Assembly (NCBI GenBank): GCA_017532025.1
Contig: JAFXJX010000092.1
Span: 22,642 to 86,641, forward strand
Source: Clostridia bacterium
Lineage (GTDB): Bacteria > Bacillota > Clostridia > Oscillospirales > CAG-272
Direction: 5' to 3'
Length of the DNA: 64,000 bases
This document shows positions 1 through 52,746 of the stretch, in pieces. How positions within the stretch are numbered: position 1 is the first letter of the stretch; the number at the start of each line of letters is the position of its first letter. The notes under the pieces were generated by a model. It did not search any database, had not been told where the DNA came from, and worked only from the letters and a program-made list of their open reading frames with translations. The translations under genes were made by a program, and so were the position numbers.

Positions 1-1932
1 AAGCGAATCGGTCACACAGCTCATGGTGCAGCCGGGAGAAGCTTCGGTCTGACCGTAAACCGATACGATTTCTTTCATATTCATCTTGTCAGCCGCTTCG
101 CGCATCAAATCAGCAGGACAGTTTGCGCCCGCCATAATACCGGTGCGGATATACGAGAAATCAGTTTTGGCAAAATCATCGTGACGAAGCATGGCAATGA
201 ACATGGTCGGCACGCCGTTGAAGCAGGTGATATGCTCACGGTTGATGCATTCGAGCGCAGGCTTCGGAGAGAAATACGGCAGCGGATAGAGCGTTGCACC
301 GTGTGTCATCGAAGAAGTCATCGAAAGCACCATGCCAAAGCAATGGAACATCGGCACCTGGATCATCATGCGGTCAGCCGTGGAAAGATCCATTTTATCG
401 CCAATGCACTTACCGTTATTGATGACGTTATAGTGGGTCAGCATAACGCCCTTCGGGAAGCCGGTTGTACCCGATGTGTACTGCATATTGCAAACATCGT
501 CAGGCTTAACAAGCGAAGCCAGGCGTTTCACCTCGTCCATCGGCACGTTCTTGCCGAGCGCAAGAGCTTCCTTCCATGTCAAGCAACCGTTTTGCTTGGA
601 ATCAATGGTAATCACATTACGAAGGAAGGGCAAACGCTTGCAGTGAAGCGGCTCGCCGGGAACGGTATTTTCAAGCTCAGGACAGAGCTCTTTGATGATG
701 CCGATATAGTCGGAATCGCGCCAACCATCAACCAACACAAGGGTATGCGTATCCGACTGACGGAGCAGATATTCCGCTTCGTGACTCTTATACGCGGTAT
801 TCATGGTCACAAGCGCCGCACCAATCTTGGCAACTGCCCAAAAAGCAATATACCACTGCGGCACGTTGGTTGCCCACACGGTCACATGAGAGCCGGGCTT
901 CACACCAAGCGCAATCAAGGCACGGGCAAATTCGTCCACATCGTTACGGAATTCGGTATAAGTTCTGGTATAGTCCAGTGTGGTATAGCGGAACGCAAGC
1001 TGATCGGGAAAAACATCCACAACGCGATCAAGAAGCGAACCGAAAGTTTCGTGCACCAAGCTGTACTTCGGCCAAATGAAGCGGCCTGTACCCGCGCGAT
1101 TCTGATAAAGCGCCACTTCACGGTGCTGTTTGATTTCAAAACGCTCCATGTAGGTCACAAAGTGCGGGAACACAATGGTGGGATCAGCAAGCTCTGCCGC
1201 CCACTGCGGATTCCATTCAAAAGAAAGATATCCATCGTAGGTTACCGAGCGAAGCGCGTTGACAAAGCGTTCAACCGGAAGATCACCCTCGCCCATCAGG
1301 CAGTAGGTTACCGAGTCTCCGCTTCCCTTCAAGTCCTTGATATGCACGTGCTTGATGTACGCGCCGAGGTTTTCCACCGTCTTCTCCGGCTCTTCGTGGA
1401 AGAGTCGGTAAGGATGGGAAATATCCCAAAGTGCCGCAAGCTCATCGCAAGCGAATACGCCGAGAACACTTGCAAGGCGGGCGGTATCAGCATAAATGCC
1501 GGAGCTTTCCACCAAAAGCACAATCTTTTTCTCTTTGGCAAGCGGGATCGCCTTTTCCAAAAAGGCAACAACAGCGGCATCGGCTTCTTCTTTGGTCTGC
1601 CATTCAATTTCCTTGGCATACAAACGCACATACGGCGCGTGAGCGGCTTTGGCAGCAGAAAGATAGCGAGTGAGTGTTTCTAAATTTTCCCCAATCTTTT
1701 CGCTGTCTGCCATATTGAAAACCGTGTCCAGACAAGGAATCGAAAGCCCCATATTGGCAAGCTTTCGAGAAGCGGCAGGAGTGTTTTCCGAAAAGATCGC
1801 ACCGCTTGCTGTAAAAGCAGGTTTATCTATATCATGAATCTCAATACCGGAAAACTGCATCTCCTTAGCAAAAGAACAGTATTCAGCCCAGGAGTACCCT
1901 TTCCAGTAATCGGTAGAAAATGCAAGTTTCAT
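1..1932 (-). CDS. Fusion protein: N-terminal xylose-isomerase-like TIM-barrel (sugar phosphate isomerase/epimerase-type) domain + AMP-dependent synthetase/ligase (acyl-CoA-synthetase-like) domain; C-terminus runs off the window
   Basis: Minus-strand frame is open from ATG (CAT at 1930-1932) to position 1, which is 644 codons. It is missing from the ORF track only because it has no in-window stop. Hand translation starts MKLAFSTDYWKGYSWAEYCSFAKEMQFSGIEIHD and continues without a stop into an adenylating domain. That domain carries the AMP-binding signature MQYTSGTTGFPKGVMLTH. The 181-1683 plus ORF is its antisense shadow. Confidence 0.8.
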   Translation of the reverse strand, partial: MKLAFSTDYWKGYSWAEYCSFAKEMQFSGIEIHDIDKPAFTASGAIFSENTPAASRKLANMGLSIPCLDTVFNMADSEKIGENLETLTRYLSAAKAAHAPYVRLYAKEIEWQTKEEADAAVVAFLEKAIPLAKEKKIVLLVESSGIYADTARLASVLGVFACDELAALWDISHPYRLFHEEPEKTVENLGAYIKHVHIKDLKGSGDSVTYCLMGEGDLPVERFVNALRSVTYDGYLSFEWNPQWAAELADPTIVFPHFVTYMERFEIKQHREVALYQNRAGTGRFIWPKYSLVHETFGSLLDRVVDVFPDQLAFRYTTLDYTRTYTEFRNDVDEFARALIALGVKPGSHVTVWATNVPQWYIAFWAVAKIGAALVTMNTAYKSHEAEYLLRQSDTHTLVLVDGWRDSDYIGIIKELCPELENTVPGEPLHCKRLPFLRNVITIDSKQNGCLTWKEALALGKNVPMDEVKRLASLVKPDDVCNMQYTSGTTGFPKGVMLTHYNVINNGKCIGDKMDLSTADRMMIQVPMFHCFGMVLSMTSSMTHGATLYPLPYFSPKPALECINREHITCFNGVPTMFIAMLRHDDFAKTDFSYIRTGIMAGANCPADLMREAADKMNMKEIVSVYGQTEASPGCTMSCVTDSL

Positions 1933-1952: not shown

Positions 1953-3344
1953 TTATTGCTCTTCAAATACAATTTTGTTCAGTGCGTTAACATAGGCGCG
2001 GAGCGAAGCACCAATGATGTCAGTCGAAACACCGCTGCCCGAATATACCTTACCCTGACTGCGCAGACGCACAAGCGCTTCACCCATGGCTTCCTGACCG
2101 CGAGTTACCGAGCTGATGCGGAAATCGTCGAGCTCGTAGGTCGAGCCGATCACTTTTTCCACCGCGAGGAATGCCGCGTCAATCGGACCGTTACCAATCG
2201 AAACGCCATGGCGAATCTCGCCGTCTTTTTCAATCTCCACCTGTGCCATCGGCGAAATGCGGTCGCCGCTGTTCACAATATACGAACGCAGAATATAGGT
2301 GGGAGGAACTTCGTCTGCCACATTGGCAACAATGATTTCAAGCTCCTTACCACTGACAGATTTTCTTTCGGCAAGCTTTTCAAACGCTTTATGCACCTTG
2401 GCAAGGTCATCGCTCGAGATCTCATAGCCCATGTGCGCCACAACGTCAGCAATCTGACCGATGGTTGTGCCCTTGGCAAGCAAAATCTCATCCGAATCCT
2501 CAACGCTTTCCACCGCGGTGGCAACGCCTTCGCGCTTTTCACCGTACAGCCAAGGCATTGAAGATGCCACGCGTGTCATCGCCGTGGGGTCAACCGAGGT
2601 GGCAAGTGCCCAATCGTTACCGCGCAGAGCAACCGTGCGAACAAATGCGCTGAGCGCCACAGCTTCATCGCCCACAAGAGAGGTCTTCACCGCCACAGCT
2701 TCGCCCATCACTGCGGCAACACTGTTGGCGCAAGCCATGGAAAGCGAATCGTTGCAACGCACGCCAATCGCCACGTGAGCAAACGCCTCGGAGGAATCAC
2801 GGAAATTTTTGAGGAAAGCTACGAGCTCGGTGGGCGTCGCAACGCCTTCACTATCGCACAAGGTGATGTATTTTGCACCCGATGCAAGGGCAAATTCACA
2901 CGCCCTTGTGAGGAATGCAGGCTCGCTTCTCACCGCATCAGCAGCAGAAAATTCAACCTCTTCGGTCAGTGCGGCGCAAGCCGAAACGCGCGCTTTGATC
3001 ATCTCAAGCACCTTGTCAGGCTTAGCATGACAGAAATACTCCATCTGCACCACCGATGTGGGAATTTCCACAACGAGTCTCTTGTTGGTCAAAGGAGACA
3101 GCGCCTCCCAAGCGGCATTTGCGGCATTATCTTCGTCCGAAACAAGCGCCGAAACCGTGGTGTTGCCCAAAAAAGGAAGCACGGTTTTGATAAAAAGCTT
3201 ATCTTCGCTCGTATTGCGAAGAGCGCCCGCCTCAATCACATCCACACCGAGGGCTGAAAGCTGTCTTGCCAAAATCAGGCGTTCTTTGAAGGAAAGCCCG
3301 CTGACACGGGAAAATGTGGTGTCAATCACTTGAATCTGTTTCAT
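1953..3344 (-). CDS. 2-isopropylmalate synthase/homocitrate synthase-like protein (DRE-TIM fold + C-terminal LeuA-dimer regulatory domain) with degenerate catalytic motifs
   Basis: 463-aa ORF with ATG and an AAGGAG RBS. The N-terminus VIDTTFSRVSG...LGVDVIEAG aligns to the LeuA motif DTTLRDGEQ...GVD.IE.G. The C-terminus (NGPIDAAFLAVEKV...VSTDIIGASLRAYVNALNKI) resembles the LeuA allosteric domain. The RDGEQ and HxH motifs are replaced (see findings). Confidence 0.75.
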   Translation of the reverse strand: MKQIQVIDTTFSRVSGLSFKERLILARQLSALGVDVIEAGALRNTSEDKLFIKTVLPFLGNTTVSALVSDEDNAANAAWEALSPLTNKRLVVEIPTSVVQMEYFCHAKPDKVLEMIKARVSACAALTEEVEFSAADAVRSEPAFLTRACEFALASGAKYITLCDSEGVATPTELVAFLKNFRDSSEAFAHVAIGVRCNDSLSMACANSVAAVMGEAVAVKTSLVGDEAVALSAFVRTVALRGNDWALATSVDPTAMTRVASSMPWLYGEKREGVATAVESVEDSDEILLAKGTTIGQIADVVAHMGYEISSDDLAKVHKAFEKLAERKSVSGKELEIIVANVADEVPPTYILRSYIVNSGDRISPMAQVEIEKDGEIRHGVSIGNGPIDAAFLAVEKVIGSTYELDDFRISSVTRGQEAMGEALVRLRSQGKVYSGSGVSTDIIGASLRAYVNALNKIVFEEQ

Positions 3345-3365
3345 ACATCAATACTCCTTGATTCA

Positions 3366-3626
3366 CAAAATAAAAGCCCCCGAAGCTTACGCTTCGGGGA
3401 CGAAAAAATCGTCGGTACCACCCGAATTGCAGAAAAACTGCCACTCACAAGGCTCTGAATAAAGCCCTTTGCCATGGTAACGGGGCAAACCGAAGTTCTT
3501 TACTACATCCTTCAAGAACCCTGCTCCGGAGCGAGATTGCAACAAGGCTTCCCCACCGACTCGCAGCAACCGTCGGCTCTCTGAAGAGGTTTTGACCCCA
3601 TGCATAACTCCATCTTTGCATTTACG
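3366..3626 (-). promoter_or_regulatory. T-box riboswitch leader with intrinsic terminator, upstream of the LeuA-like gene
   Basis: The minus strand reads in the canonical order. Elements are the AGAGAG (GA/K-turn) motif in stem I, the AGTA box (GTAGTAA), the F-box CCGTTA, and the T-box core AATTCGGGTGGTACCGACG (plus coordinates 3410-3428). The terminator is CCCCGAAGC-GTAA-GCTTCGGGG followed by CTTTTATTTT (3366-3400). Confidence 0.85.
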
Positions 3627-3632
3627 AGAAAC

Positions 3633-3661
3633 ATCTTACCACAACAAATCCGATTTGTCAA
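3633..3661 (-). promoter_or_regulatory. Sigma-A type promoter for the T-box leader (TTGACA-17 nt-TAAGAT)
   Basis: The minus strand has TTGACA at 3656-3661, a 17-nt spacer, and TAAGAT at 3633-3638. Confidence 0.55.
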
Positions 3662-3756: not shown

Positions 3757-4470
3757 ATGAAGATTACCCGATACGAGCTGAAAACCAACAACAAAAAAAC
3801 ATATAAAATCGTCATTCTTGCCGATCTACACTCAACTGTGCCTGAAGGTCTGCTTGAAACCGTCAAGAAAGAAGCCCCCGATCTTATTGCCATTCCCGGA
3901 GACTGCATCGACTATACCGTTTCGCACGCGCTGAATATGCTCCCCTTTCTTCATTCGCTTGCCGAAATTGCTCCCACCTATTACAGCGACGGCAACCACG
4001 AACTTTTCAAAGAAGAAGACGTTAGAGCCGTGGAAGAAACAGGCGTTCGTTTCTTGTTTGATCAAACAGTCACGCACGGCGAACTTGTGATCGGCGGCCT
4101 TGCCTCCGGATTTGGGTTCGGAGAACAAGGCAGATGGAAAACAACACCCGCCCCAAATACCGATTACCTAAACGAGTTTTCACGTGAACCAGGCTTCAAA
4201 ATTCTGCTCTCTCACCATCCCGAATATTATAAACCCTATCTCAAAGCGCTTCCGATCGATCTTATCATCTCAGGTCACGCGCATGGCGGACAGTGGCGTG
4301 TGTTCGGTAGAGGTGTCTTTGCCCCCGGTCAGGGAATCTTTCCCAAATACACATCGGGTGTTCATGAAAACCGCTTTGTCATCAGCCGCGGTCTTGGCAA
4401 CCACACCGTCATCCCCCGCATCTTCAATAGACCCGAAATCGTGGTGCTTACCTTAACGGGAAATCAATAA
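3757..4470 (+). CDS. Metallophosphoesterase (calcineurin-like phosphoesterase family)
   Basis: ATG at 3757 is preceded by AAGGAG. Motifs appear in family order: LADLHS, GDCIDY, GNHE, SHHP, GHAHGGQ. The longer 3592 start in the ORF track has no RBS and overlaps the promoter region. Confidence 0.85.
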   Translation: MKITRYELKTNNKKTYKIVILADLHSTVPEGLLETVKKEAPDLIAIPGDCIDYTVSHALNMLPFLHSLAEIAPTYYSDGNHELFKEEDVRAVEETGVRFLFDQTVTHGELVIGGLASGFGFGEQGRWKTTPAPNTDYLNEFSREPGFKILLSHHPEYYKPYLKALPIDLIISGHAHGGQWRVFGRGVFAPGQGIFPKYTSGVHENRFVISRGLGNHTVIPRIFNRPEIVVLTLTGNQ

Positions 4471-4483
4471 TTCTGTAGTACAA

Positions 4484-4706
4484 TGTTTCATCTAAAACTT
4501 TACATTTGGCAATACCGCGAGATCCGACCCGTCCTGTTTGCAGGCCGAGTCGCCCTGCGCTACGCTTGGGTTTCGACTGCACACCGCCCCGTGTCATCCT
4601 GAGCGACGCGAAGCAAAGTCGAGGCGCAGCCGAAGTGGGATCTCGGGCGGTGTTCCGCTCAAGATGACACGCGGAGTGAAGTGCATGTAAAGTTTTCGTT
4701 GAAACA
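4484..4706. mobile_element. MITE-like non-coding element: 223 bp bounded by 22-bp imperfect terminal inverted repeats, with a GC-rich structured interior
   Basis: TGTTTCAtctAAAACTTTACAT (4484-4505) is the inverted complement of ATGTAAAGTTTTcgtTGAAACA (4685-4706), matching 19 of 22. The interior holds a second inverted pair, GTGTCATCCTGAGCG (4591-4605) with CGCTCAAGATGACAC (4656-4670). A crossing pair also exists, CCGCGAGATCC (4515-4525) with GGGATCTCGGGCGG (4637-4650). There is no ORF. Confidence 0.45.
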
Positions 4707-4740
4707 AGTTACCTTTTTCATCTATCATCTAACCAAAGCA

Positions 4741-4767
4741 CCCCGACAGTTTTTGATTCTGTCGGGG
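4741..4767. terminator. Hairpin between convergent genes (metallophosphoesterase / AraC regulator)
   Basis: CCCCGACAG-9 nt loop-CTGTCGGGG forms a perfect 9-bp stem 12 nt below the AraC stop. The flanking T-runs are weak. Confidence 0.5.
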
Positions 4768-4778
4768 TGATATCATTT

Positions 4779-5573
4779 TTATAGCGTATGCAAATACAAA
4801 CCGCCCTGCTCGCCCTCGGCGCGTTTTTCGGTGGGAGACATCCCGTAACGCTTGCGAAAATCGCGGTAAAAGGTGGAAAAATCGTTATACCCCACCTCGC
4901 GCGAAATCTCCGCCACCGATTTTTCGGTGGTAAGCAAGAGATGCTCGGCAAGCGTCAGGCGTTCTTTTAACAAATACTGATAGGGCGTGATTCCAAACTC
5001 TTTCTTGAACAGACGTATGGTATAATCCTCCGAATAGCCGTAACGCTCTGCGATTTGGGCAAGCGAAAGCTGACTGCGGCACTCAGTGGAAATCATGCGC
5101 TGAATATCCTTGGCAATCATCGTGCGCGTGTTTTCGGGCACAACTTGATGCTCAATTTCGGCAAGAAGCTCATACATCAAGCCATTCAAAGCAAAAAAGC
5201 CACTCTCATGGGCGAGATAGCGTCGATCGTATTCTTCCATCAACGCGCGAATGGCGCTTTTGTTGAACCTGCCGCGAATCGGAATGCCGTCCGCTTCGTT
5301 TTCTGAATAGGTTGCGTGAAAATGCAAATAGAGATACGAAGGACGCTCACTTACCGCCTTTCCGCTTTGGAAAAGCCCTGCACGCTGAATGTAATATTCC
5401 CCCTCAGAAAGCTCCACAAGCACGCCGTCTTCCTCAAAACGCAGCACGCCTTCCATCATAAAGATCAAAACGCTCTCGTCGAACACGCGACTCACGTGAT
5501 GCTCACGCCGTTCAAAGCGTTTAAAGCCGCTGTATATAAATTCGGGAAGCGGTTTTCGGCAAAGATACCACAT
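4779..5573 (-). CDS. AraC family transcriptional regulator (cupin-type N-domain + C-terminal HTH)
   Basis: The C-terminal region (LSLAQIAERYGYSEDYTIRLFKKEFGITPYQYLLKERLTLAEHLL...VGYNDFSTFYRDFRKRYGMSP) is a typical AraC HTH pair. The ATG at 5573 has a GGAG 8 nt upstream. The gene is divergent from a glycoside-hydrolase-like gene. Confidence 0.85.
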   Translation of the reverse strand: MWYLCRKPLPEFIYSGFKRFERREHHVSRVFDESVLIFMMEGVLRFEEDGVLVELSEGEYYIQRAGLFQSGKAVSERPSYLYLHFHATYSENEADGIPIRGRFNKSAIRALMEEYDRRYLAHESGFFALNGLMYELLAEIEHQVVPENTRTMIAKDIQRMISTECRSQLSLAQIAERYGYSEDYTIRLFKKEFGITPYQYLLKERLTLAEHLLLTTEKSVAEISREVGYNDFSTFYRDFRKRYGMSPTEKRAEGEQGGLYLHTL

Positions 5574-5709
5574 ATCAGTTCTCCGTTGTTCACTATATCG
5601 ATTTTTGCAATTAAGTCTTCGGTTATTGTACTTGTACATTGCACGTATTTGTGTTATTATAACAAAAAAGAGAGTCTTTTGTCAACATAATTTGGAAAGG
5701 ATTTTGAAC

Positions 5710-7545
5710 ATGCTACGAAATTTGCAATATACGCCCTTTTCTGCAAATGCCATCAAGCCTGAAGGATGGTTGAAAAAGCAGCTCACAATCCAAGCAAACG
5801 GTCTTGCGGGCAATCTTGACAAAATTTGGCCCGATATTAAGGACAGTATGTGGATCGGCGGTAGCCGCCATGACTGGGAAAGAGTGCCCTATTGGCTCGA
5901 CGGCTTCATTCCGCTTGCCTATCTTTTGGATGATGAAGACATGAAACAGCGAGCCAAAACCTATGTTGACGGCATTGTTGACCGCCAGAGGGAAGACGGT
6001 TGGCTCTGCCCTTGCCGTTCCGAGCAGAGACGGCATTACGACACTTGGGCAGCCCTTCTCCTTTGCAAGGTGCTTGCACTATACTGTGACGTAACAGGCG
6101 ACAGCCGCGTCGAAGACGCGCTTTACAAAGGTCTTAAGCAATTCTCTGACCACATCAATGGTGCCACCCTTCACGACTGGGGTGCAACCCGTTGGTTTGA
6201 AGGCTTGATTCCGATCTTTTGGCTGTATGAAAAACGCCCTGAATCCTGGCTGCTCCTGCTTGCCAAAAAGCTGAATATACAAGGCTTTGACTGGGAAAGG
6301 GTCTTTGCCACCGATATGCTCGATGAGCTTACCGACGGCTGGGATTATATCTCCCACGTTGTCAATCTCGGCATGATGTTAAAATCCCGTGCCTTAATGT
6401 CGCGCATCACGGGCGAAGACCCCGAAGCGTTTGCCCAAAAAGCCTACGCTTGGCTGTATGAAAATCACGGCATGGCGTGCGGGCACTTCACAGGAGATGA
6501 GAATCTCTCCACCACAAGCCCGATTCAAGGCAGCGAGCTTTGCAGTGTCAACGAGGCTATGTTTTCGTTTGAAAATCTCTTTCAGATTTCGGGCAATCCG
6601 TATTGGCTCGATCTTGTCGAAAAAGAAGCCTTTAACGCTCTGCCCGCCACAGTCAGCCCGGATATGTGGACACATCAATACGTGCAAATGACCAATCAGG
6701 TCGAATGCTCGCGCACGCCGCACCGCGTCTTTCGCACCAACAACGAAGAAGCGCACATCTTCGGTCTTGAGCCACATTACGGTTGCTGTACCGCCAATAT
6801 GGGTCAAGGCTTCCCAAAATTCGCGCTTTCCTCGCTTTACAAAACAAAAACAGGCATTGCCTGCGGCATTCCCCTGCCCATGACGCTTGAAAGTGAAATC
6901 AACGGCACTCACCTTACCTGTCAGGTTATCACCGACTATCCCTTCCGAAGTGAGGTGCGCTTTGTCTTCCGTGCCGAAGCCCCTGTTTGCTTTGATTTCA
7001 CTTTACGCATTCCGTCGCACGCATCCTCTGCCAAAGTGAATGGAAAAGATGTTGCTTGCGGTATGTACACCTTGCCGCTTTCTGTAACAGACACAACCGA
7101 AATCACGCTCTCGCTTGATTTTACCACCCGTTTTGAAAGACGTCCGAGCGGTATGCTCGCTCTGTGGCACGGTCCGCTTCTCTATTCTCTCCCGATTGCC
7201 GAGCGCTGGGAAATGCGCGAATATGAGCGTGACGGCGTGGTGAGAAAATTCCCCTACTGCGACTATTACATCTATCCCGAATCAGACTTCAACTACGGTT
7301 TTGCTACGTCGGATATCGAAAAAATTACCGTTTGTGAAGAAGATTTCGATGCACCCTTCACTCCAAAACAGCCGCCGATCAGGTTGAAACTGCCCATGGC
7401 AAAGGTCGCTTGGGAAAAGCCGGACGGCAGATGCGCCCTTCACCCCGTTTCGAACAAAGCGATAAGCAATATTGAAACTGTCACCTTAATTCCCTACGGC
7501 TGCACCAACCTCCGCATGACCGAAATGCCGCTGATTGAAGAATAA
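5710..7545 (+). CDS. GH127/GH146-like glycoside hydrolase (beta-L-arabinofuranosidase/DUF1680-type)
   Basis: ATG at 5710 follows GAAAGGA. The architecture and motifs resemble HypBA1-type enzymes: GSELCSVNEAMFSFENL (compare GETCASVAM) and the Cys-rich HYGCCTANMGQGFPKF (compare WFGCACCPANI). The gene is paired with a divergent AraC regulator. Confidence 0.6.
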   Translation: MLRNLQYTPFSANAIKPEGWLKKQLTIQANGLAGNLDKIWPDIKDSMWIGGSRHDWERVPYWLDGFIPLAYLLDDEDMKQRAKTYVDGIVDRQREDGWLCPCRSEQRRHYDTWAALLLCKVLALYCDVTGDSRVEDALYKGLKQFSDHINGATLHDWGATRWFEGLIPIFWLYEKRPESWLLLLAKKLNIQGFDWERVFATDMLDELTDGWDYISHVVNLGMMLKSRALMSRITGEDPEAFAQKAYAWLYENHGMACGHFTGDENLSTTSPIQGSELCSVNEAMFSFENLFQISGNPYWLDLVEKEAFNALPATVSPDMWTHQYVQMTNQVECSRTPHRVFRTNNEEAHIFGLEPHYGCCTANMGQGFPKFALSSLYKTKTGIACGIPLPMTLESEINGTHLTCQVITDYPFRSEVRFVFRAEAPVCFDFTLRIPSHASSAKVNGKDVACGMYTLPLSVTDTTEITLSLDFTTRFERRPSGMLALWHGPLLYSLPIAERWEMREYERDGVVRKFPYCDYYIYPESDFNYGFATSDIEKITVCEEDFDAPFTPKQPPIRLKLPMAKVAWEKPDGRCALHPVSNKAISNIETVTLIPYGCTNLRMTEMPLIEE

Positions 7546-7589
7546 AACTCCCCCATTGGCGTACCTGCGATAGAGCAGGATTGAAAAAC

Positions 7590-7635
7590 AACAACCGCCG
7601 AGAGAGACCAATCACAGTCTCGCTCGGCGGTTGTT
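7590..7635. terminator. Bidirectional intrinsic terminator between convergent genes
   Basis: AACAACCGCCGAG (7590-7602) pairs with CTCGGCGGTTGTT (7623-7635) in a 13-bp stem. It is flanked by A-rich sequence on the left and T-rich sequence on the right. Confidence 0.7.
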
Positions 7636-7638
7636 AAA

Positions 7639-9276
7639 TTATTTAGGCAATCTGTCACAAAACATCAAAAGGTTTGATGTTACTTTTTCATCCTCTGTAA
7701 GAGGACGAAACGTACCGTTTTCATAAAGAATATCCATAACCATTAGCGCAACTGTTCGTCCGACAAAGCCACCGGTTCTATAAGTTACTACAAGATCCCG
7801 CATCTGCGGCGGATACTCTTTCGCAATCAGCATTGCTCGCTCCAATGCATAGTCTGCTAAAGTTTTCTTAAGTTCTTCATCAAGTGATGGTAACTTGGAG
7901 AAGAACTCATTTTGGTCGCCATACATCACCATAATATTGACCTTGTTATCCTTAGTCAAATATCCACGATCTCTCAGACGGTCAAATTTTTCTTTGTTAG
8001 CAGGGGTATCTTCTATAGCCCCCATCATAAACTCGTACAAATATTCATAATCCGAAGTAAGATTGTTTTCCCAAGCACCCTTGCGCGAACAATAGCGTGT
8101 ATCGATCGACCAAGAATATACAGTGGGATATTTTTCCGACCAACGATTCATATTCCCACAAGCCCAATAAGATGGATAACTTTGGAACGGAACATACTCA
8201 GGATCACTCTGTGTTGCGGGAATAGAAACGTAAGCAATAAAATCACCGCCAGCCAAGGTCTTTATATGGTATTTTGAGAGATCTGTTTTGGGCGTGATAC
8301 TACATTTGTTGGTTATGGCGTAGAATATTGCAGCCGCTTCCAACAATTCTCGATTTCCGGTTGGAATATAAATATTCTTTACGTCAGCAACAGCTGCCCT
8401 TACCTGTGGTACATATTCACGTACCAAAAGCTTGGCGATCTCCATTTGCTTTTGCTTGCATTTGTCCTGCTGTTCAAGTGAGTATGTTTGGGGATTAAAA
8501 TCTACATATGTCGTGTAGCGATTTCCTGCTTGCTCTACCAAAAAACCGTTTGCTACCAGTTCCTTAACGGCATCTTCAATATAAACGGGAGTAACGCCCA
8601 ACTCTTCAGCGATTTCAACCATTGTTCTCGGAGTATGGTAAACGCTATATACAATATTTAGATTTAATTTGTTTTTCAAATAAAACTCGGTTGCCCCATT
8701 CTGCCCCGGATTCCCGCCATGACCAAAGCTTTCTGCTTCAATTGGTTTGATACCAAGTTTTCCGATTTTTCTTTCCATTATAAAACCTTCTTTCAATTCA
8801 TTTCTTGCCTTGTTCAGATGCCATTTGATTGTACCCTCGGGAATTTCTATTTCTTTGGCAATTGTAGAGATAGACTTGTTTTCGTAATAAAATGAATATA
8901 TGATTTTACGACGTATCTGTGTTAAAAAAGCAATTTCGCGCCGTAACAAATCAATCTTCGCTTCGGAATCCTCGTCCGCAATCAATGCCTCGTCCGCAAT
9001 CAATGTATTATCGGAAATACTTATTCCGTCTATCGAAATTCCTTCTCTTTTTTTCTTGTGAGATACAAATTTCGAATAAACATGCTTGGAGATTCTCCAA
9101 ATATATCCGTCTACATTTAGTATTTCATTTGCCGAAAGCAAAGATAAATAAACTTCTGAAACAATATCAGAGCTTAATTCTTCCGCTTCTTCATAAGAAA
9201 ATGATTTTTTCATGGCAAAACCATAAATTTTAGGCAGATACTCAACGATCAACTCGTCTGCTTGTTGTTTTTTCAT
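7639..9276 (-). CDS. Sigma-70 family (ECF-like) RNA polymerase sigma factor fused to a large soluble C-terminal domain containing a second winged-helix-like segment
   Basis: The N-terminal ~170 aa have a sigma region 2-like segment (IVEYLPKIYGFAMKK...DIVSEVYLSLL). They also have a region 4 HTH (KSISTIAKEIEIPEGTIKWHLNKARNELK). About 370 further residues follow with no TM segment. The ATG at 9276 has a GAGG 7 nt upstream. The gene is visibly AT-rich. Confidence 0.7.
   Translation of the reverse strand: MKKQQADELIVEYLPKIYGFAMKKSFSYEEAEELSSDIVSEVYLSLLSANEILNVDGYIWRISKHVYSKFVSHKKKREGISIDGISISDNTLIADEALIADEDSEAKIDLLRREIAFLTQIRRKIIYSFYYENKSISTIAKEIEIPEGTIKWHLNKARNELKEGFIMERKIGKLGIKPIEAESFGHGGNPGQNGATEFYLKNKLNLNIVYSVYHTPRTMVEIAEELGVTPVYIEDAVKELVANGFLVEQAGNRYTTYVDFNPQTYSLEQQDKCKQKQMEIAKLLVREYVPQVRAAVADVKNIYIPTGNRELLEAAAIFYAITNKCSITPKTDLSKYHIKTLAGGDFIAYVSIPATQSDPEYVPFQSYPSYWACGNMNRWSEKYPTVYSWSIDTRYCSRKGAWENNLTSDYEYLYEFMMGAIEDTPANKEKFDRLRDRGYLTKDNKVNIMVMYGDQNEFFSKLPSLDEELKKTLADYALERAMLIAKEYPPQMRDLVVTYRTGGFVGRTVALMVMDILYENGTFRPLTEDEKVTSNLLMFCDRLPK
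8970..9005. repeat. Perfect 18-bp tandem duplication inside the sigma-fusion gene
   Basis: CCTCGTCCGCAATCAATG occurs at 8970-8987 and again, immediately adjacent, at 8988-9005. It is in frame and encodes the duplicated peptide LIADEA/LIADED in the linker between the sigma regions. Confidence 0.9.
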
Positions 9277-9498
9277 TTTATTACCTCGGTACCGTTTGCC
9301 CATATAGTGGAAAGAAATGCAAAAAGGTTGGCAGTTTTGAAATGATTATATCACAAATTTCTAAATTTGTATACGTTTAATTCGCATTTACATCCACAAA
9401 AGCAGTGCTTGTCAGGAAAATTGACAAACTTTCGGAACGCACAAATCAAAGGATCCCTCCCGGAGGAAGGCTATTTTATCCCCCGACAGTATGGAAAA

Positions 9499-41382: not shown

Positions 41383-44300
41383 TCATTCTTTTCGTGAACG
41401 CGCTTTCTTGATAACATAATAGCAAACCAAGAAAGCGATAACAGCAAGACACAAGATTGAACCAACAATAATCAAGACGATCACATACGTCGGCAAACCG
41501 TCCTCCGCACTGAGTTTAGGGATAGATTCTGTCTTGGTATGACCACATACCGTACACCTGTAGCTCATAATGCCCTCTTCATCTGTCGTTGCAGGCTTAA
41601 TCACAACACCCTCAGCATATGTATGCGGAATGTTAGGATCATCTTGGCAAGTGAGTTCCGCAATCGTATAGGTAAACCCGACAGTGGCACTAGGAGTCAT
41701 GCCCTCCTTGATTGCATAAGCAATGATTGTCACATCCTCCGTGATCGTAATGGGTCCGTCATACCGAATTCTTGCAGGATTGTTTTCATCGCACGGGCAG
41801 GAAAGATCGAGTGTATAATAAATGGTTGCGCCCTCTGTCTCTGTGCTGAGAGTAATCTGTGTTCCGGCAGGCACCTTACTACCGCTCTCTAGATTCGATG
41901 TAACCTTTTGGCAGGTATTGGCACGAGCCGCTGTCTGCGATATCACAGTTACATCTGCTGTAAGATCTGTACCTTCCACAGTAAGACGTATCTTCCCTGT
42001 CCCGGGAAGTTCACCTTGCAGAGTGATCAAGGCTCTTCCGTTTTTATCTGTTATGACAGACGCCGTTGAAACAGAGATAATATCGGGTGTCAATGAGGTT
42101 ACACAAACAGTTTTGTTTGCACCTGCTTCTTTGGGAAGCAGTTCAACAATGAAGTGTGCGCTATCGCCATAAACCACCGTTGCCGATTGCGGCACAACAA
42201 GGTCTTTCGGTAGGAGATAAACCTTCAACTCCTCTTCATAGCCGTTCGCCATAGCCGTTCCTGCATAATTGATAACACCTTGAATCGAAACTTTCACGCT
42301 ATCGCCCAACTTAGTCTCGGGGATAAATGTGAAAACACTCGCATATTCCACGTTAGGGTCGTCAAAAGATGTCTCCGCATTTATCGGAACAATCTTACCC
42401 TCAACCGTTTTGCCGTCAGCAGTAACCGTTACAGTGTGCGTGTTAATGCTATCAATCCGCATATATTGGCTAAATGCAATGCGCACGCTTTCGGTATAAG
42501 CATTCACCTGCTTCACGGTAGGCGCCATCTTGGAAACCAACGCAATATTCACTTCAGTTTGCGGAGGCGGTACAGGCAAGTAGCCGTTTTCATCGGCGTC
42601 GGGATCATTTCTCGAATCCGCATCATAATAACCGTCTTTCGAGAATTTCACAAGCCACTGTCCCATAGGAACATCCCATGCGTACCGTCCCTCTTTGTCG
42701 GTATAAAGCGGATTGACCTGATCCCATTCTTCGGCATTCCAGAAAACATCGCCCTTTTCGCTATCGTAATAGTAGGCTTCCACCTTTACACCCTCCAAAC
42801 GGTTGGAAGGCACAGCTTCGCACACATAACCGGAGGGGTCGATGAGGAGCGGTACATCGACACCGTCACCCGGCACAGCTTGGTTCCGAGGTTTGTTTTC
42901 AGGTTTACCATCATCGGGATCATCTTCCGGGTCCTCGGGGCATTTCGCCGCGGCATAGATTCTGTCTCTCAGATTATCCAGTTTTTCCATGTATGATTCA
43001 TGCGTTTTCTTGATGGTATAATCAAGCGTTTGGCTTCTCAGCATACCGGCGCCCAGCATTCCAAAGCTGCCCGCCGCCGCAACTGAGTGCAGGCATACGT
43101 ATGAGCTCACCACCGAGCTGGCATGCGGCAAAAGACCGAGCGCTCCGTTAAGCAGCGCGCTGTACATCTGATACGCTTCCACTTCCAGGTACAAACCCTC
43201 GCGCGCGGCATAATAATCCAGAACCAATGCCGTGTACTCTGCATAGAATGCCTGATATTGCGCCGTAGACAACGCATAGCTTCCGTCAGGGCATTTTCTT
43301 TCAAGTGCCAAAGGCAACAGCTCTGCCCATGAAGTAAAGATAATATCGTTGTTTTTAATCAAGTTGTTCAGTCTCGCCACGTCCAAACACAATACAAAGT
43401 TACCTGCCAGTCCCAACGAAGCAAAATCCATGAGCACTGCGGCGATACTGAGCATACCTTGCGCATATTGCATTCCTCCTTGTGGTGACAGATCATACGA
43501 CGCCACACTCGGTACGTTATTGGCATACCAGGTTTCATCTATCACCACCGAACAGCTAACATGCTGCTTGGCACTCGGAATCACAATCTCGTAGGTTTCG
43601 CTGAAGGGCGTGTTGCTCTTTTTCACGTAAACGACCGTGTTTTCACCGTCGATCATCTTGGTGTAGCCGTCTTTCAGCAGAACATCCTCGCTCTTTTGGG
43701 TATAGGTCAGCGTATTCTGAGCCATCCGCATGATCGGTGCGTTATCATTTTGCTTGTCAACCAAAACGTAGGTGATCGAGCTATCAGTTTCTTCGCTAAC
43801 AACGCCGATGTCTTCAGAAAAACCCACACCAAACTTTTCAAGTTCTTCCCCGGTCTGCAAAACGCCGTCATAGAAGTTTTGTTCGTTGATATAAGCTGTA
43901 TCGTTTTCACTTTCCGTAAACACAACGTTATAGCCGCAAGGGAGATCGGTTGAGTCTTTGTAGGTAATACTGCCTACCCAAATATCCGTTCCGGGTTTAT
44001 TCGTCATAGGAATATAAGTTTCTTTTCCGTTGGTTCCCGCAGTCACAACGTAAACGTCACTTAAACGCTTCGCTGAGCCGTTGGAAAAAGCAACGCGAAA
44101 AGAGTATGAACAATTACCCGTCCAAGTATACTGACTTGGATATTCGTTTTCCCGAATATTGAGCGTTATCGTTTTATCGCCGTTGATCACCTCAATGGTT
44201 TCCACGTAACAAAAGTCTTCCCGATAATGCAACCAAGACATTGCCGTTTCGTATTCAATGTCGTTATACTCGCTCTGAATATTGGCGTAGATAGCATAAT

Positions 44301-47300
44301 ACGAATTGTTTTTCGGCTCGTTCAGCCGAATGGTAGCCCGATAGTTTCCCGATGCATTTGCCGTCACCGTTGCCACAACAACGCCGTTGCTAAATACCGT
44401 AACCTTACTTTTGGCAGGCGCTTTTCCGTTTATTATCACGGAATCGGTGCCCGTCTTTTCAGGAATCAGAATTGTTGCATTTGCTATTTTCAGCGAGATC
44501 GTACCAACAGACTGCGTAATGTTGTCACCGCCCATAGAGAAAGCAAGAGACGCATTGACAACACACTCCGAGGAAGCAGTCAGAGGAACAACGTAAACGT
44601 ATAAAATGCCTTCGGATTCATTCGTATAAATCGTCAGCACCTGTTCATCCAGCGTATAGTTCACAGCCGTTTTGTTCCAATATACGCCTTGGGATAACAC
44701 GGTAAAGCCTTCGGGCAATTCAAGAATAACCGTTTCTCCCGATGCCTTGTAAGATGGCTTAAGTTTATATTCACAACGAAGCAGCAACGTTGTTCCCACC
44801 ACACAGCTTGTATGGTTAGCTGTAAAAAGGGTATTTTCTTTTTCGATGTACCAAAAACGTTCTTCTTCAAACACGGGTACTGTGAGATCAGTTATTTCGG
44901 TCACTTTTCCGTTTTGAACCGAAACCCTCCGCAAGACGTAGTCAACATCCTTTGCCATACCACAGGCGTTCAACTTGGAAAGATGGTCCATATTATCAAG
45001 AAGTGAGGAACGACCCATAAGAACAACGTCGTACTCACCTGCAGCAAGCGGCATTGACGCGTAAGTTTCACCAATATTCTCGTAAAGAACTCGATTCCCT
45101 TTGGAATCAAACACCATAACACAATTCTTGGCGTTGCCAAGGTTACGGTAGATGCTCAACCGCCCATTTTCCAAAAGCACAAGATTTGCCTCGGCAAGAC
45201 AATTTTCATCCAATTGCACAACAACCGTCTCGGCAGTCTTCACCCCATAGGTGTCAACCATTTGAATTTCCAATGTATCATACGGAGAAACCGTATCCGC
45301 CGCCGGAATCAGGTACGGATACTGAGCTGTAAAGTCAACAATTTCGTTTTGTGTGGTTTGGTTAAAAAGGCGGAAGGACAAGCCGTCAAAATTCAAAAGC
45401 TCAGACTGCAAAAATTGCTCATCATCCAAAGATGTGCCGATCACAACACCCGAAAGCATTATTCTGCACGTAGGCAGTGGCGTCATTTGTACATCGCCAA
45501 GCGATATATTTTTTGAAAGCTCCTCACCTGAGATAGACACAAGGCGATTGTAATACGTATCCGCGCGGATGCGGAGTTTGGTTGACAGACACAGCGCATC
45601 GAAAGCGAAATATCCGTTTTCATCCACAGATATCGAATAATCCTTTGAAAAACTCTCCGCATACTGTATCACCGTCATAGAAGCACCATTGATCTCGTTG
45701 CCCAGCAAATCGGTGACTCGTCCACTCACCGTAACCGTTTCAAGGCGCGAAAGTGTAAGCGAAACATCAGTAACTTCAGAGGGAACAGCATCCCCCGCGT
45801 GAGCCTGATACACAAACGCCAAATCCTCGCCCAACACAACCCGAAAACGTAAGTCATCCGGTCGTTTTGTCAAAACGATTGTATTGCCCTTACCCAAAAG
45901 AACAGTGCCGTCATACCAAAGCACGTCATAATCTGCCTCCGACACTTGACCGTCATCACCGAAAACCTTTGCCGAAAAAGAAATCTTCGAACCATCCTCA
46001 TGAGTAACGTATTCAAAAGAAACTCCGTGCGCTCTGGCATAGTCTTCGCCACAACTGCCCAAATGAACAAAGAGTACCAGTTCCGGATCAGACGTATTAA
46101 AAGCCGAATCGGCAATACTCGTTATATGAAGAGGGATACGTATAGACATGCCAACAGAACAAAACGCTCTTTCGGCAATACTCGTCACACTTTCATCATC
46201 CGGAATCACACTGTTTTTACACCCAAGGAGCAAAGTTTTGCTTGCTGTTTCAATCAAAGTATTTCCTGCCGAATGGTAAACTTCGTTTCCTTCTTCAACC
46301 GTAATACTGCTAAGACTTTCGCATGATCCAAAAGCTTCAAAGCCAATGCTTGTCACACTATTTGGAATGGTAATTGATGTAACACCCGTGCAGCCATAAA
46401 AGGCCCAGGCACCAATTTCTGTCACACCGCTTGGAATCGTAACAGAAACAAGGTCTTTGCATCCCTTAAACGCGCCGTTACCGATACTCGTTACACTGCC
46501 GTCAGTCGGAATCACACTGTTTTTACATCCAAGGATTAAGGTTTTGGTTGCTGTTTCGATGATCGTATTTGCTGCAGAATGGTAAACCTCGTTTCCTTCT
46601 TCAACCGAAATGCTGCCAAGATTTTCACAAAATTCAAAGACATTTTCGTTAATTCTCGTTACATTGGCAGGAATCGTGATAGATTCAAGAGCCGTGCAAT
46701 CTCTGAAAGCATCGTAACCGATCTGCTCCAATTGCTTGGGAAGCACAACCGAACGAAGCTTTTCACAATAAACAAAGGCATAGGTTCCAATAAAACCAAT
46801 ACCATCCGGAATCACAACCGATTCAAGACTTGTGCAACCATAAAAACAACTTCCCGGAATCGTAGTCAGCCCCTCAGAAAGCGTAACCGATTTAAGGCTC
46901 GTGCACCAATTAAACATCCTTTCGCCTATATAAGTCACGCTATTAGGAATCGTAATTGTCTCAAGACTTTCACAACCATCAAACATAGATTCGCCTATAT
47001 AGGTCACACCGTCGGCAATCGTAACCGAAGTCAGGTTAACGCAGTTTGTAAATACGTTGTCACCAATTTCGGTTACACCTTGGGGAATCGCAACAGAAAC
47101 AAGACCTGCCATTTCCTCAAAAGCGCCGTCGGCAATGCTTATTACGCTTCCGTCATCAGGAATCACGCTGTTATTACAGCCCTGGAGCAGTTCTCCATAC
47201 CAATTTATCAGCGTATTCCCTGCCGAATGGTAATCCTTGTTTTCTTTGGCGACTGAAATGCTGTTCAGCCCTGTACAACGGTTAAACGCCGATACAGCAA

Positions 47301-48117
47301 TACCCGTTACGCTTGCCGGAATCGTAATCGAAGTCAGGCTGATACAACCCTGAAACGCTCTGTAGCCAATACGCTCCAAGCCTTCGGGAAAGGTTATTTC
47401 CGTAAGCTGTGTGCAAGAGCCAAATGCATCGCTGTTTATTGTTTTCAATTGACTGTTTGGAGAAACAGTTACGCTGACAAGACTTTCACAATTCAAAAAA
47501 GTGCTGTCACTGATTTCGGTCAACGCATCCGGAATCACAAACGATTCAAGGCTTGTGCAACCTTGAAAGGCAGACGAATATATCTCCGCAAGCTCGCTGT
47601 TTTCGGAAATATCCACTGAAACCAAACTTTCACAGCCCTCAAACGCATTTCCTTGAATCAATGTCACACTCGCAGGGATTGAAATTTCTCTTAGCGATAC
47701 ACACTGAGAAAAAGCATTCCAACCGATTGTTGTCAATCCGTCGGGCAAAACGACAGACGCAAGATTCGAAAATTCGTAAAAAGCGGAACTTCCAATTTGC
47801 AATATACCGTCTGAAAGAACAAGGGAAACCACCTGTTCTTTGAGGTTGGGATCCAAATTCTCAAATTGAAATTCATCAATTTTGTCGGTATTGCTGATGG
47901 TCAGCTTACCTTCGCTATCAAGCACGGCATCAAAATCATAATCGTCAAACGTAAGCATACCGTTTTCTTCCGTCCCCTGATCGGGCGTGGTGGGAATCCA
48001 TATAACACCCCCGCCACCCTCAACAAAATCAAGTGCCATAATTGGCATTTGAAGCATTCCAAACAAAATGGAAAGCGCTAAAAACAGACTCATAAATCTT
48101 CGAGTAAAACCACGCAT
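41383..48117 (-). CDS. Giant (2244 aa) cell-surface protein: signal peptide, ~600 aa of BspA-type leucine-rich repeats, beta-sandwich/Ig-like and carboxypeptidase-regulatory-like domains, an internal hydrophobic helical module, Big_2-like and chitobiase/FN3-associated-like domains, C-terminal TM anchor
   Basis: ATG follows a GGAGG RBS. The signal peptide is FMSLFLALSILFGMLQMPIMA. LRR units of the IPxxVTxIGxxAFxxCxxLxSV type are repeated about 25 times. Near the C-terminus are the motif GATIYYTLD and the anchor YVIVLIIVGSILCLAVIAFLVCYYVIKKARSRKE. Confidence 0.9.
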   Translation of the reverse strand: MRGFTRRFMSLFLALSILFGMLQMPIMALDFVEGGGGVIWIPTTPDQGTEENGMLTFDDYDFDAVLDSEGKLTISNTDKIDEFQFENLDPNLKEQVVSLVLSDGILQIGSSAFYEFSNLASVVLPDGLTTIGWNAFSQCVSLREISIPASVTLIQGNAFEGCESLVSVDISENSELAEIYSSAFQGCTSLESFVIPDALTEISDSTFLNCESLVSVTVSPNSQLKTINSDAFGSCTQLTEITFPEGLERIGYRAFQGCISLTSITIPASVTGIAVSAFNRCTGLNSISVAKENKDYHSAGNTLINWYGELLQGCNNSVIPDDGSVISIADGAFEEMAGLVSVAIPQGVTEIGDNVFTNCVNLTSVTIADGVTYIGESMFDGCESLETITIPNSVTYIGERMFNWCTSLKSVTLSEGLTTIPGSCFYGCTSLESVVIPDGIGFIGTYAFVYCEKLRSVVLPKQLEQIGYDAFRDCTALESITIPANVTRINENVFEFCENLGSISVEEGNEVYHSAANTIIETATKTLILGCKNSVIPTDGSVTSIGNGAFKGCKDLVSVTIPSGVTEIGAWAFYGCTGVTSITIPNSVTSIGFEAFGSCESLSSITVEEGNEVYHSAGNTLIETASKTLLLGCKNSVIPDDESVTSIAERAFCSVGMSIRIPLHITSIADSAFNTSDPELVLFVHLGSCGEDYARAHGVSFEYVTHEDGSKISFSAKVFGDDGQVSEADYDVLWYDGTVLLGKGNTIVLTKRPDDLRFRVVLGEDLAFVYQAHAGDAVPSEVTDVSLTLSRLETVTVSGRVTDLLGNEINGASMTVIQYAESFSKDYSISVDENGYFAFDALCLSTKLRIRADTYYNRLVSISGEELSKNISLGDVQMTPLPTCRIMLSGVVIGTSLDDEQFLQSELLNFDGLSFRLFNQTTQNEIVDFTAQYPYLIPAADTVSPYDTLEIQMVDTYGVKTAETVVVQLDENCLAEANLVLLENGRLSIYRNLGNAKNCVMVFDSKGNRVLYENIGETYASMPLAAGEYDVVLMGRSSLLDNMDHLSKLNACGMAKDVDYVLRRVSVQNGKVTEITDLTVPVFEEERFWYIEKENTLFTANHTSCVVGTTLLLRCEYKLKPSYKASGETVILELPEGFTVLSQGVYWNKTAVNYTLDEQVLTIYTNESEGILYVYVVPLTASSECVVNASLAFSMGGDNITQSVGTISLKIANATILIPEKTGTDSVIINGKAPAKSKVTVFSNGVVVATVTANASGNYRATIRLNEPKNNSYYAIYANIQSEYNDIEYETAMSWLHYREDFCYVETIEVINGDKTITLNIRENEYPSQYTWTGNCSYSFRVAFSNGSAKRLSDVYVVTAGTNGKETYIPMTNKPGTDIWVGSITYKDSTDLPCGYNVVFTESENDTAYINEQNFYDGVLQTGEELEKFGVGFSEDIGVVSEETDSSITYVLVDKQNDNAPIMRMAQNTLTYTQKSEDVLLKDGYTKMIDGENTVVYVKKSNTPFSETYEIVIPSAKQHVSCSVVIDETWYANNVPSVASYDLSPQGGMQYAQGMLSIAAVLMDFASLGLAGNFVLCLDVARLNNLIKNNDIIFTSWAELLPLALERKCPDGSYALSTAQYQAFYAEYTALVLDYYAAREGLYLEVEAYQMYSALLNGALGLLPHASSVVSSYVCLHSVAAAGSFGMLGAGMLRSQTLDYTIKKTHESYMEKLDNLRDRIYAAAKCPEDPEDDPDDGKPENKPRNQAVPGDGVDVPLLIDPSGYVCEAVPSNRLEGVKVEAYYYDSEKGDVFWNAEEWDQVNPLYTDKEGRYAWDVPMGQWLVKFSKDGYYDADSRNDPDADENGYLPVPPPQTEVNIALVSKMAPTVKQVNAYTESVRIAFSQYMRIDSINTHTVTVTADGKTVEGKIVPINAETSFDDPNVEYASVFTFIPETKLGDSVKVSIQGVINYAGTAMANGYEEELKVYLLPKDLVVPQSATVVYGDSAHFIVELLPKEAGANKTVCVTSLTPDIISVSTASVITDKNGRALITLQGELPGTGKIRLTVEGTDLTADVTVISQTAARANTCQKVTSNLESGSKVPAGTQITLSTETEGATIYYTLDLSCPCDENNPARIRYDGPITITEDVTIIAYAIKEGMTPSATVGFTYTIAELTCQDDPNIPHTYAEGVVIKPATTDEEGIMSYRCTVCGHTKTESIPKLSAEDGLPTYVIVLIIVGSILCLAVIAFLVCYYVIKKARSRKE
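46201..46632. repeat. Intragenic ~306-nt direct duplication within the LRR region
   Basis: CGGAATCACACTGTTTTTACA...GGTAAAC.TCGTTTCCTTCTTCAACCG occurs at 46201 and again at 46507, offset by 306 nt (102 aa). The copies encode SI(T/S)VEEGNEVYHSA(G/A)NT(L/I)IETA(S/T)KTL(L/I)LGCKNSVIP. A third, diverged copy lies upstream in the protein. Confidence 0.85.
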
Positions 48118-52524: not shown

Positions 52525-52591
52525 AAATCCTTGCGCTTTCCCACGAAAGCATCCTTTCTTGCCACGGTCAAAACCGTAGCAAAATATCCGT

Positions 52592-52633
52592 AAAAACACC
52601 CCGTTTTCTACTGTCGGACACAAGAAAACGGGG
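52592..52633 (-). terminator. Intrinsic terminator after the membrane protein gene
   Basis: The minus strand reads CCCCGTTTTC-15 nt-GAAAACGGGG followed by TGTTTTT. Confidence 0.8.
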
Positions 52634-52746
52634 CATCCCAATCATATCCTGTTTACAATTGTAACACTTTTGAAAAGTTTTGTAAATATCAAAACCTATG
52701 AAGTTTTCTGAAAATTAGCTGAATTTATTGCAAAAACCATCCAAAA

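Follow-up and report, generated by a model that had tools for sequence, protein, structure and literature searches.

In Bacillus subtilis, the ilv-leu operon carries a T-box with a CUC leucine specifier, and T-boxes turn on genes that raise the supply of their cognate amino acid. Allison's labelling work on Bacteroides/Prevotella ruminicola reportedly showed that branched-chain volatile fatty acids are converted to branched-chain amino acids by reductive carboxylation. AMP-forming ligases run from the acid to the CoA-thioester. The MbcS-type enzymes are branched-chain acyl-CoA synthetases (PMC10026030). In 2-isopropylmalate synthase (LeuA), the accessory subdomain I caps the active site and is needed for catalysis, and truncations without it are nearly inactive (PMC9860122). 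HisZ, a dead paralogue of histidyl-tRNA synthetase, is the histidine-sensing regulatory subunit of the short-form ATP phosphoribosyltransferase HisG_S (PMC9734150). Here we describe pLeuA, the name used for the product of positions 1953-3344 (minus strand) in a 64,000-nucleotide window of Clostridia bacterium contig JAFXJX010000092.1. The window is the whole stretch of DNA that was analysed; L-numbers denote loci fetched for comparison, L001 being the source contig of the window.

Compared with the bacterial short-form LeuA (TIGR00973 / PRK00915), pLeuA has an HMGL-like barrel, a helical subdomain II and a LeuA_dimer domain in identical order, and it shares the barrel fold and the regulatory-domain signatures. 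Unlike LeuA, it is about 50 amino acids shorter, lacks the metal triad, RDGEQ, GERAGN and accessory subdomain I, and is encoded with an acyl-CoA ligase fusion instead of leuBCD. This ligase differs from MbcS-like ligases in that it is only about 26% identical to them and carries an N-terminal TIM barrel. As in the B. subtilis ilv-leu operon, a Leu (CUC) T-box transcription attenuator stands ahead of leucine-supply genes, but here it governs the pLeuA/ligase pair and not the canonical ilv-leu biosynthetic genes. The pLeuA loci resemble the enzyme set of reductive carboxylation in having an AMP-forming ligase, 2-oxoacid:ferredoxin oxidoreductases (VOR, IOR or PFOR) and branched-chain aminotransferase (BCAT), with amino-acid-specific T-boxes before the ligases. 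Like HisZ, pLeuA is a paralogue of an amino-acid enzyme that has lost catalysis and kept the amino-acid site, and it would likewise be a trans-acting allosteric subunit of a committed enzyme. On the other hand, its fold and ancestry are unrelated to those of HisZ, and the enzyme that it would regulate, an adenylate-forming ligase, carries an additional TIM barrel. We lean, with little more than even confidence, towards pLeuA being a subunit that senses leucine, has no catalytic activity of its own and belongs to an isovalerate-CoA ligase with which leucine synthesis by reductive carboxylation would begin. The literature searched, which leaves out most subscription journals, yielded no paper on the pLeuA family, its fusion partner or a Leu T-box before such genes, and no description of a dead-LeuA partner of any MbcS-type or reductive-carboxylation ligase.

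Loss of the catalytic motifs and conservation of the family

The Pfam profile HMGL-like (PF00682) matches pLeuA at amino acids (aa) 17-226 with 105.6 bits, and LeuA_dimer (PF08502) matches at aa 330-458 with 109.3 bits, covering model positions 2-130 of 131. The original prediction had claimed from the sequence that the catalytic DTTLRDGEQ, HxH and GERAGN motifs are lost and that the LeuA-dimer domain is well preserved. The strings quoted for this are all present in the protein: DTTFSRVSG at aa 8-16, VRCNDSLSMACANSVAAV at aa 195-212 and LVGDEAVA at aa 223-230 in the barrel, and NGPIDAAFLAVEKV at aa 385-398 and VSTDIIGASLRAYVNALNKI at aa 439-458 in the regulatory domain. In HMMER alignments with the solved LeuA catalytic domains 3rmj, 3ewb and 3eeg, DTTF---SRVSG of pLeuA lies opposite DTTLRDGEQTPG, vRCNDSL opposite sHCH(N/D)DL and GDEA opposite GERAGN. 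Identical registers were obtained in a MAFFT alignment of pLeuA with E. coli LeuA and six other canonical LeuAs. The former Arg/His/His positions are occupied by Ser13, Arg196 and Asn198 in the window protein, and Arg/Val stand at the register of the metal-binding Asp. A further loss, which had not been listed in the original prediction, is a deletion of about 28 residues in the MAFFT alignment that takes out the accessory-subdomain-I motif GSGAFAHSSGIHQDG...NYE (HSSGIHQDG ... NYE). The NCBIfam LeuA equivalogs all match pLeuA at about half of their cut-off; the best of them, NF002086, scores 279.6 versus 532 bits, and TIGR00973 scores 242.1 bits versus a cut-off of 598.7.

The AlphaFold2 model of pLeuA has a mean predicted local distance difference test score (pLDDT) of 86.9, with aa 270-285 as the only notable disordered stretch, and comprises an eight-stranded barrel of regular form together with a short helical subdomain and a beta-alpha regulatory domain. 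Foldseek aligns this model with LeuA, with MAM and with homocitrate synthases. Superposition on the catalytic domain of Listeria LeuA (3ewb) gives a TM score of 0.90 and a root-mean-square deviation of 2.3 A (Foldseek), and therefore the catalytic residues are absent and not displaced. Judged from the alignments and the model, pLeuA is a non-catalytic 2-isopropylmalate synthase paralogue in which every element required for the Claisen condensation has been lost.

A word-indexed search recovered 120 clusters at 40-100% identity to pLeuA, nearly all of 458-475 aa. An exhaustive search gave about 110 full-length members among 50%-identity representatives (453-490 aa, each with a single aligned stretch), below which the search drops stepwise to canonical LeuAs of about 500-547 aa that align in two stretches. 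A scan of species-representative genomes yielded 69 pLeuA-family loci. Carriers in the Bacillota are Oscillospiraceae, Acutalibacteraceae and Lachnospiraceae-labelled metagenome-assembled genomes (MAGs), and those in the Bacteroidota are Bacteroidales, Salinivirgaceae, Cryptobacteroides and Coprenecus. The Coriobacteriia contribute Eggerthellaceae MAGs and the isolates Adlercreutzia sp. ZJ304 and Slackia sp. ZJ119, and one Victivallaceae MAG is a further carrier. Almost all of these genomes come from rumen, gut or faeces.

Residues were counted in an alignment of 58 distinct pLeuA members and 7 canonical LeuAs. None of the 58 members retains any of the metal ligands D14, H202 and H204 (E. coli numbering), which are present in 7/7 canonical LeuAs, and both GERAGN and the subdomain-I motifs HSSGIHQDG/NYE are missing in 58/58 members. 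The substrate-Arg position of (L)RDGxQ is Lys or Arg in 50/58 members and Ser in the window protein. The VEF Glu, the EDA Asp, Arg145 and the PDT Asp are invariant in the pLeuA family as well as in the canonical LeuAs, and barrel residues invariant across the pLeuA family are E102, K108, E131, D136, R139 and D164. At aa 220 (window 2685-2687, minus strand) the family has an invariant Lys where canonical LeuA has an invariant Glu on beta-8 (the 'QVE' motif). This lysine could fill the place left free by the missing metal ion.

Within pLeuA, conservation is highest in the regulatory domain, whose mean pairwise identity across the family is 63%, compared to 44% for the barrel and 34% for the linker. 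The positions that never vary in canonical regulatory domains are all invariant, or almost invariant, in the pLeuA family as well, namely G425, G427, P428, D430, A431, L446 and G457, followed by G462, G472, G477, T482, D483, A491 and N497 (E. coli numbering). G462 is the site of the E. coli G462D feedback-resistant allele. Comparison with a 93%-identical orthologue gave an overall ratio of nonsynonymous to synonymous substitution rates (dN/dS) of 0.063, with values of 0.09 in the barrel and 0.03 in the regulatory domain. pLeuA is a maintained gene under purifying selection and is not decaying; with about 110 clusters at 50% identity, the degenerate clade is conserved, a point that the original prediction had named as a check.

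A further expectation was that default pipelines would annotate the gene as leuA. This applies to JGI, which labels relatives '2-isopropylmalate synthase', but not to the NCBI pipeline (PGAP), which calls them 'hypothetical protein' or 'alpha-isopropylmalate synthase regulatory domain-containing protein'. If the reading of pLeuA is correct, recognition of the family would remove this annotation trap, as calls of the JGI type would wrongly credit a genome with a leucine-biosynthesis step in metabolic reconstructions.

The leucine T-box and the partner gene

The region upstream of pLeuA contains a T-box leader, which is the sole Rfam match in the 64-kb window. Its specifier codon was read from the covariance-model alignment together with the sequence. 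Minimum-free-energy folding of Stem I did not reproduce the known architecture (z = 0.66) and was rejected in favour of the covariance-model alignment. Immediately ahead of pLeuA, a T-box with a CUC specifier is also present in 20 other Bacillota loci (L005, L006, L008, L010-L013, L015, L017, L018, L022-L024, L026, L028, L030, L065, L070, L076 and L077). In the window and in these 20 loci, CUC is followed by a purine and stands directly 5' of the lower Stem I helix; three of the leaders were read by eye and by consistency with their neighbours as CUC + A + UUCC. Since a T-box with a Leu specifier precedes pLeuA, the gene pair belongs to leucine supply. The suggestion in the original prediction that the protein is a ligand-sensing or scaffolding pseudoenzyme is supported by the results and is strengthened by this Leu-specifier T-box. 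A recorded 72-aa gene at about 3387-3605 of the window (minus strand; L001 9740-9958) has no Pfam hit; since it coincides entirely with the T-box leader, the gene call is almost certain to be spurious.

Directly downstream of pLeuA and on the same strand, a gene for a TIM-barrel/acyl-CoA ligase fusion was found by tblastn in all of the 65 family loci that have downstream DNA, which belong to four phyla. Constant linkage to the downstream ligase, named beforehand as a check, is thus what the loci show. The fusion follows none of six canonical LeuA loci (tblastn over the fetched loci). In many loci, the pLeuA stop codon and the fusion start codon overlap by 1-4 nt or stand 2 nt apart. pLeuA and the partner TIM domain diverge in parallel (r = 0.93), each with 48% mean identity, and the partner ligase domain has a mean identity of 74%. 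The ligase part carries the Pfam domains AMP-binding and AMP-binding_C with the conserved motifs YTSGTTGFPKG, YGQTE, HTGD, GRLKDMIIRGGENIYP and PMNAAGKILK, and the structures nearest to it are fatty-acyl, feruloyl and malonyl-CoA synthetases.

The partner TIM domain was modelled with a pLDDT of 93.9, and its top matches are the isomerase Art22 and sugar 3-epimerases; the fold search returned generic sugar isomerase/epimerase neighbours only. Among the candidate metal residues, D170, H197 and E239 are conserved. The fourth, E142 (codon at window 1507-1509, minus strand), is Lys in 20/57 sequences, comprising the Bacteroidota clade (among loci L030-L083) and L030, and given this exchange the TIM domain of the Bacteroidota clade may not be a metalloenzyme. 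Stand-alone homologues of the TIM domain occur in Clostridia (L085-L088, positions 7001-7825), with 33-37% identity and a length of about 261-275 aa. They follow a conserved string of genes for ACT, DUF711, oligoendopeptidase F (PepF) and a small open reading frame. No pLeuA or ligase was found in these four loci, which are uninformative on the function of the TIM domain.

In at least 29 loci, one or more genes for BCAT, PFOR, IOR or VOR adjoin the pLeuA pair. The BCAT assignment (NF009897) and that of IorA/IorB (TIGR03336) are above cut-off, the NifJ-type PFOR matches TIGR02176 with about 1640-1700 bits, and the VOR subunits include VorB. In L019-L021, an operon has the order T-box (AUC, Ile), MbcS-like ligase, T-box (GUA, Val), MbcS-like ligase, VOR, BCAT, pLeuA and fusion. 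In L015, a Val T-box with a ligase is followed by a Leu T-box, pLeuA and the fusion. These sister T-boxes lie at 238-472 and about 2900-3140 of L019, at corresponding places of L020 and L021, and at about 5800-6040 of L015; some of the Ile/Val leaders do not reach the Rfam gathering score and were identified through their motifs. The arrangement suggests that the three ligases are the Ile, Val and Leu branches of one scheme leading from branched-chain acids to amino acids.

Three Bacteroidales MAG loci (L062 700-17156, L082 and L063) have, on a single strand, ilvC, leuC, leuD, a cimA-like gene, leuB, an aminotransferase gene, metY, metX, pLeuA, the fusion and PFOR. The cimA-like gene of these operons keeps its catalytic motifs, and pLeuA is shorter there (418-434 aa). 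The pair stands alone amid unrelated genes in the window, in the Salinivirgaceae locus L035 and in the Adlercreutzia locus L032. No canonical leuA, BCAT or PFOR gene was found by tblastn in the 64-kb window. A TPP riboswitch is present a few kilobases downstream of the pair in a related locus (L012 17941-18039), and a Thia_YuaJ thiamine transporter gene lies on the equivalent side of the window contig, outside the window (L001 19112-19696).

Features of the pLeuA locus (window positions unless L001 is given; lengths in amino acids, aa)
Feature	Position	Strand	Remarks
Promoter-like site TTGACA, 17-nt spacer, TG-TAAGAT	3633..3661	-	10/12 matches, extended -10 TG; consensus match only
T-box leader RNA	3393..3625	-	Rfam RF00230, 102.9 bits vs gathering score 93, full model 1-219
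Specifier codon CUC (Leu), Stem I specifier loop	3533..3535	-	followed by G, then lower-helix 3' strand CUCC pairing with GGAG
T-box core GGGUGGUACC	3414..3423	-	UGGU would pair with ACCA tRNA 3' end (discriminator A, as tRNA-Leu)
Intrinsic terminator	3366..3401	-	11-bp GC-rich stem (3401-3376), then TTTTATTTTG (U-run)
Ribosome-binding site AAGGAG	3354..3359	-	9 nt ahead of ATG at 3344
pLeuA open reading frame	1953..3344	-	463 aa; ATG at 3344, stop codon 1953-1955
pLeuA aa 1-262, degenerate HMGL-like (DRE-TIM) barrel	2559..3344	-	Asp/His/His, RDGEQ, GERAGN gone
pLeuA aa 263-329, accessory-region remnant	2358..2558	-	subdomain I deleted, helical subdomain II kept, aa 270-285 predicted disordered
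pLeuA aa 330-463, LeuA allosteric (LeuA_dimer) domain	1956..2357	-	GNGPIDAA, EAMGE, STDIIGAS...NALNKI signatures intact
Partner domain 1 (aa 1-285), xylose-isomerase-like TIM barrel (AP_endonuc_2)	1078..1932	-	candidate metal residues E142, D170, H197, E239 present
Partner domain 2 (aa 286-644 of 835), AMP-forming acyl-CoA ligase	1..1077	-	YTSGTTGFPKG motif; window edge cuts gene
Full partner gene, 835 aa	L001 11413-13920		ligase domain aa 286-835

Proposed role and alternative explanations

If pLeuA is a leucine-sensing subunit, the system might work as follows. The two-gene operon would be transcribed only in the presence of uncharged tRNA-Leu, which stabilises the antiterminator under leucine limitation, as expected from the T-box. 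pLeuA would be the obligate partner subunit of the downstream fusion of a TIM barrel and a short/branched-chain acyl-CoA ligase, and the ligase would convert isovalerate to isovaleryl-CoA. We propose isovalerate as its substrate because of the Leu label given by the T-box, the AMP-forming chemistry and the OFOR (2-oxoacid:ferredoxin oxidoreductase) and BCAT neighbours. An OFOR would then reductively carboxylate isovaleryl-CoA to 2-oxoisocaproate, which BCAT would transaminate to leucine. As a dimer held together by the regulatory domain, as in LeuA, pLeuA may bind leucine and restrain the ligase in trans, both the direction and the sign of this regulation being proposed. The dead barrel, with a face uncovered by the loss of subdomain I, perhaps docks on the partner TIM domain. 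With less confidence, at somewhat below an even chance, we extend this to a general scheme: the LeuA allosteric module may have been detached and re-used as a separate leucine-sensing subunit that controls the committed enzyme of an isovalerate-to-leucine pathway widespread in gut and rumen Bacillota, Bacteroidota and Coriobacteriia.

Several observations weigh against this role. Half of the old barrel pocket (E131, D136, R139 and D164) is invariant, and because of this and of the Lys or Arg kept at the substrate-Arg position in 50/58 members, the pLeuA barrel may still hold a ligand site. Within the regulatory domain, G445 of the pLeuA family replaces a canonical-invariant Glu beside the TDI motif. 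In Bacillota, the E-D-H-E site of the partner TIM domain is apparently intact, a hint that this domain serves in catalysis more than in docking. The best NCBIfam model for the ligase is the generic NF009233 'fatty acid CoA ligase family', with 681 bits at a cut-off of 832. No OFOR or BCAT gene is near the pair in the window and in several other genomes, and no Rosetta-stone fusion of pLeuA with the ligase occurs among the best 150 representatives.

Some of these points would fit an explanation in which the pLeuA barrel, alone or together with the partner barrel, forms a new metal-independent or shared active site for a step in leucine supply. This would make pLeuA a neo-enzyme or a co-catalytic subunit, which we consider unlikely, although it is the strongest of the alternatives. 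It could account for the invariance of E131, D136, R139, D164, E102 and K108, for K220 in place of the canonical Glu, for Lys/Arg at the substrate-Arg position in 50/58 members and for the purifying selection on the barrel (dN/dS 0.09), as well as for the partner TIM domain, which is isomerase/epimerase-like and has the E-D-H-E residues in Bacillota. However, the majority of the invariant barrel residues do not vary in canonical LeuA either and may just hold the fold, the barrel is the less conserved half of pLeuA, and the window protein has Ser at the Arg position. Additionally, the partner TIM domain has Lys in place of one candidate metal ligand across the Bacteroidota clade (20/57 sequences), and the conversion of isovalerate to leucine has no step requiring such an enzyme.

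A less probable explanation is that the pLeuA dimer is purely a scaffold or assembly factor, which organises or stabilises the ligase without sensing, for example as an alpha2-beta2 complex or as a tether to the oxidoreductase. The invariant pairing and the translational coupling of the two genes would be expected for such a factor, and LeuA_dimer is the dimerisation domain in LeuA (Pfam description; PMC9860122). On the other hand, the signatures of the ligand site (GxGP-DA, the G462 position and TDI) are near-invariant, which dimerisation alone would not demand. Still more improbable is a regulator of canonical LeuA or CimA that joins the real synthase in domain-swapped heterodimers. The LeuA dimer is itself domain-swapped (PMC9860122), and the operon of three Bacteroidales loci contains a catalytically intact cimA/leuA-like gene 5 kb upstream, but the conserved neighbour in 65/65 loci is the ligase fusion and not a synthase, and neither the window nor most of the loci have a synthase gene close to the pair. 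We practically dismiss an active isopropylmalate synthase with shifted residues or a recently decayed leuA pseudogene: pLeuA is homologous to LeuA overall, but the catalytic residues are missing by the concordant evidence of three independent alignments and of the structural superposition, and more than 100 clusters in different phyla keep an intact frame, with a dN/dS of 0.06.

If the leucine-sensing role of pLeuA is true, then pLeuA, the fusion, OFOR and BCAT would be the long-missing gene set for the isovalerate-to-leucine conversion of the labelling studies. The parallel Ile and Val branches would be marked by T-boxes of their own, with each T-box labelling the substrate branch of its ligase. 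After HisZ, it would also be a clean second case in which the dead paralogue of an amino-acid enzyme serves as a trans-acting allosteric subunit. Furthermore, a concrete and testable gene set would be at hand for the way in which anaerobes of the rumen and gut build branched-chain volatile fatty acids into amino acids. Assimilation of branched-chain acids bears on fibre digestion in ruminants and on the balance of branched-chain fatty acids and amino acids in the human gut.

Other genes of the window

The window regions 3757-9303 and 9300-36000 hold ordinary Clostridia housekeeping and sporulation genes, none of which belongs to branched-chain amino acid metabolism. Neighbours in the window include a divergent metallophosphoesterase, AraC, GH127, a sigma-70-like protein, DivIC/YabQ/YabP, MazG and a MurJ-like protein, and further RelA/SpoT, RecJ, CdaA, ClpP, a split transketolase, malic enzyme, fumarase and a type III glutamine synthetase. 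A 1011-aa protein (49606-52641, minus strand) contains two BcrAD_BadFG ATPase domains and DUF2229 ('CoA enzyme activase'). Activases of this type activate 2-hydroxyacyl-CoA dehydratases or benzoyl-CoA reductase-like enzymes. At 41383-48117 (minus strand), a 2244-aa protein is encoded with many BspA-type leucine-rich repeats (LRR_5, 414 bits) as well as CarboxypepD_reg and CHB_HEX_C/Fn3-associated domains, and probably represents a giant protein of the cell surface. Just left of the window (L001 14829-18599), another LRR_5 protein is encoded, which has 1256 aa.

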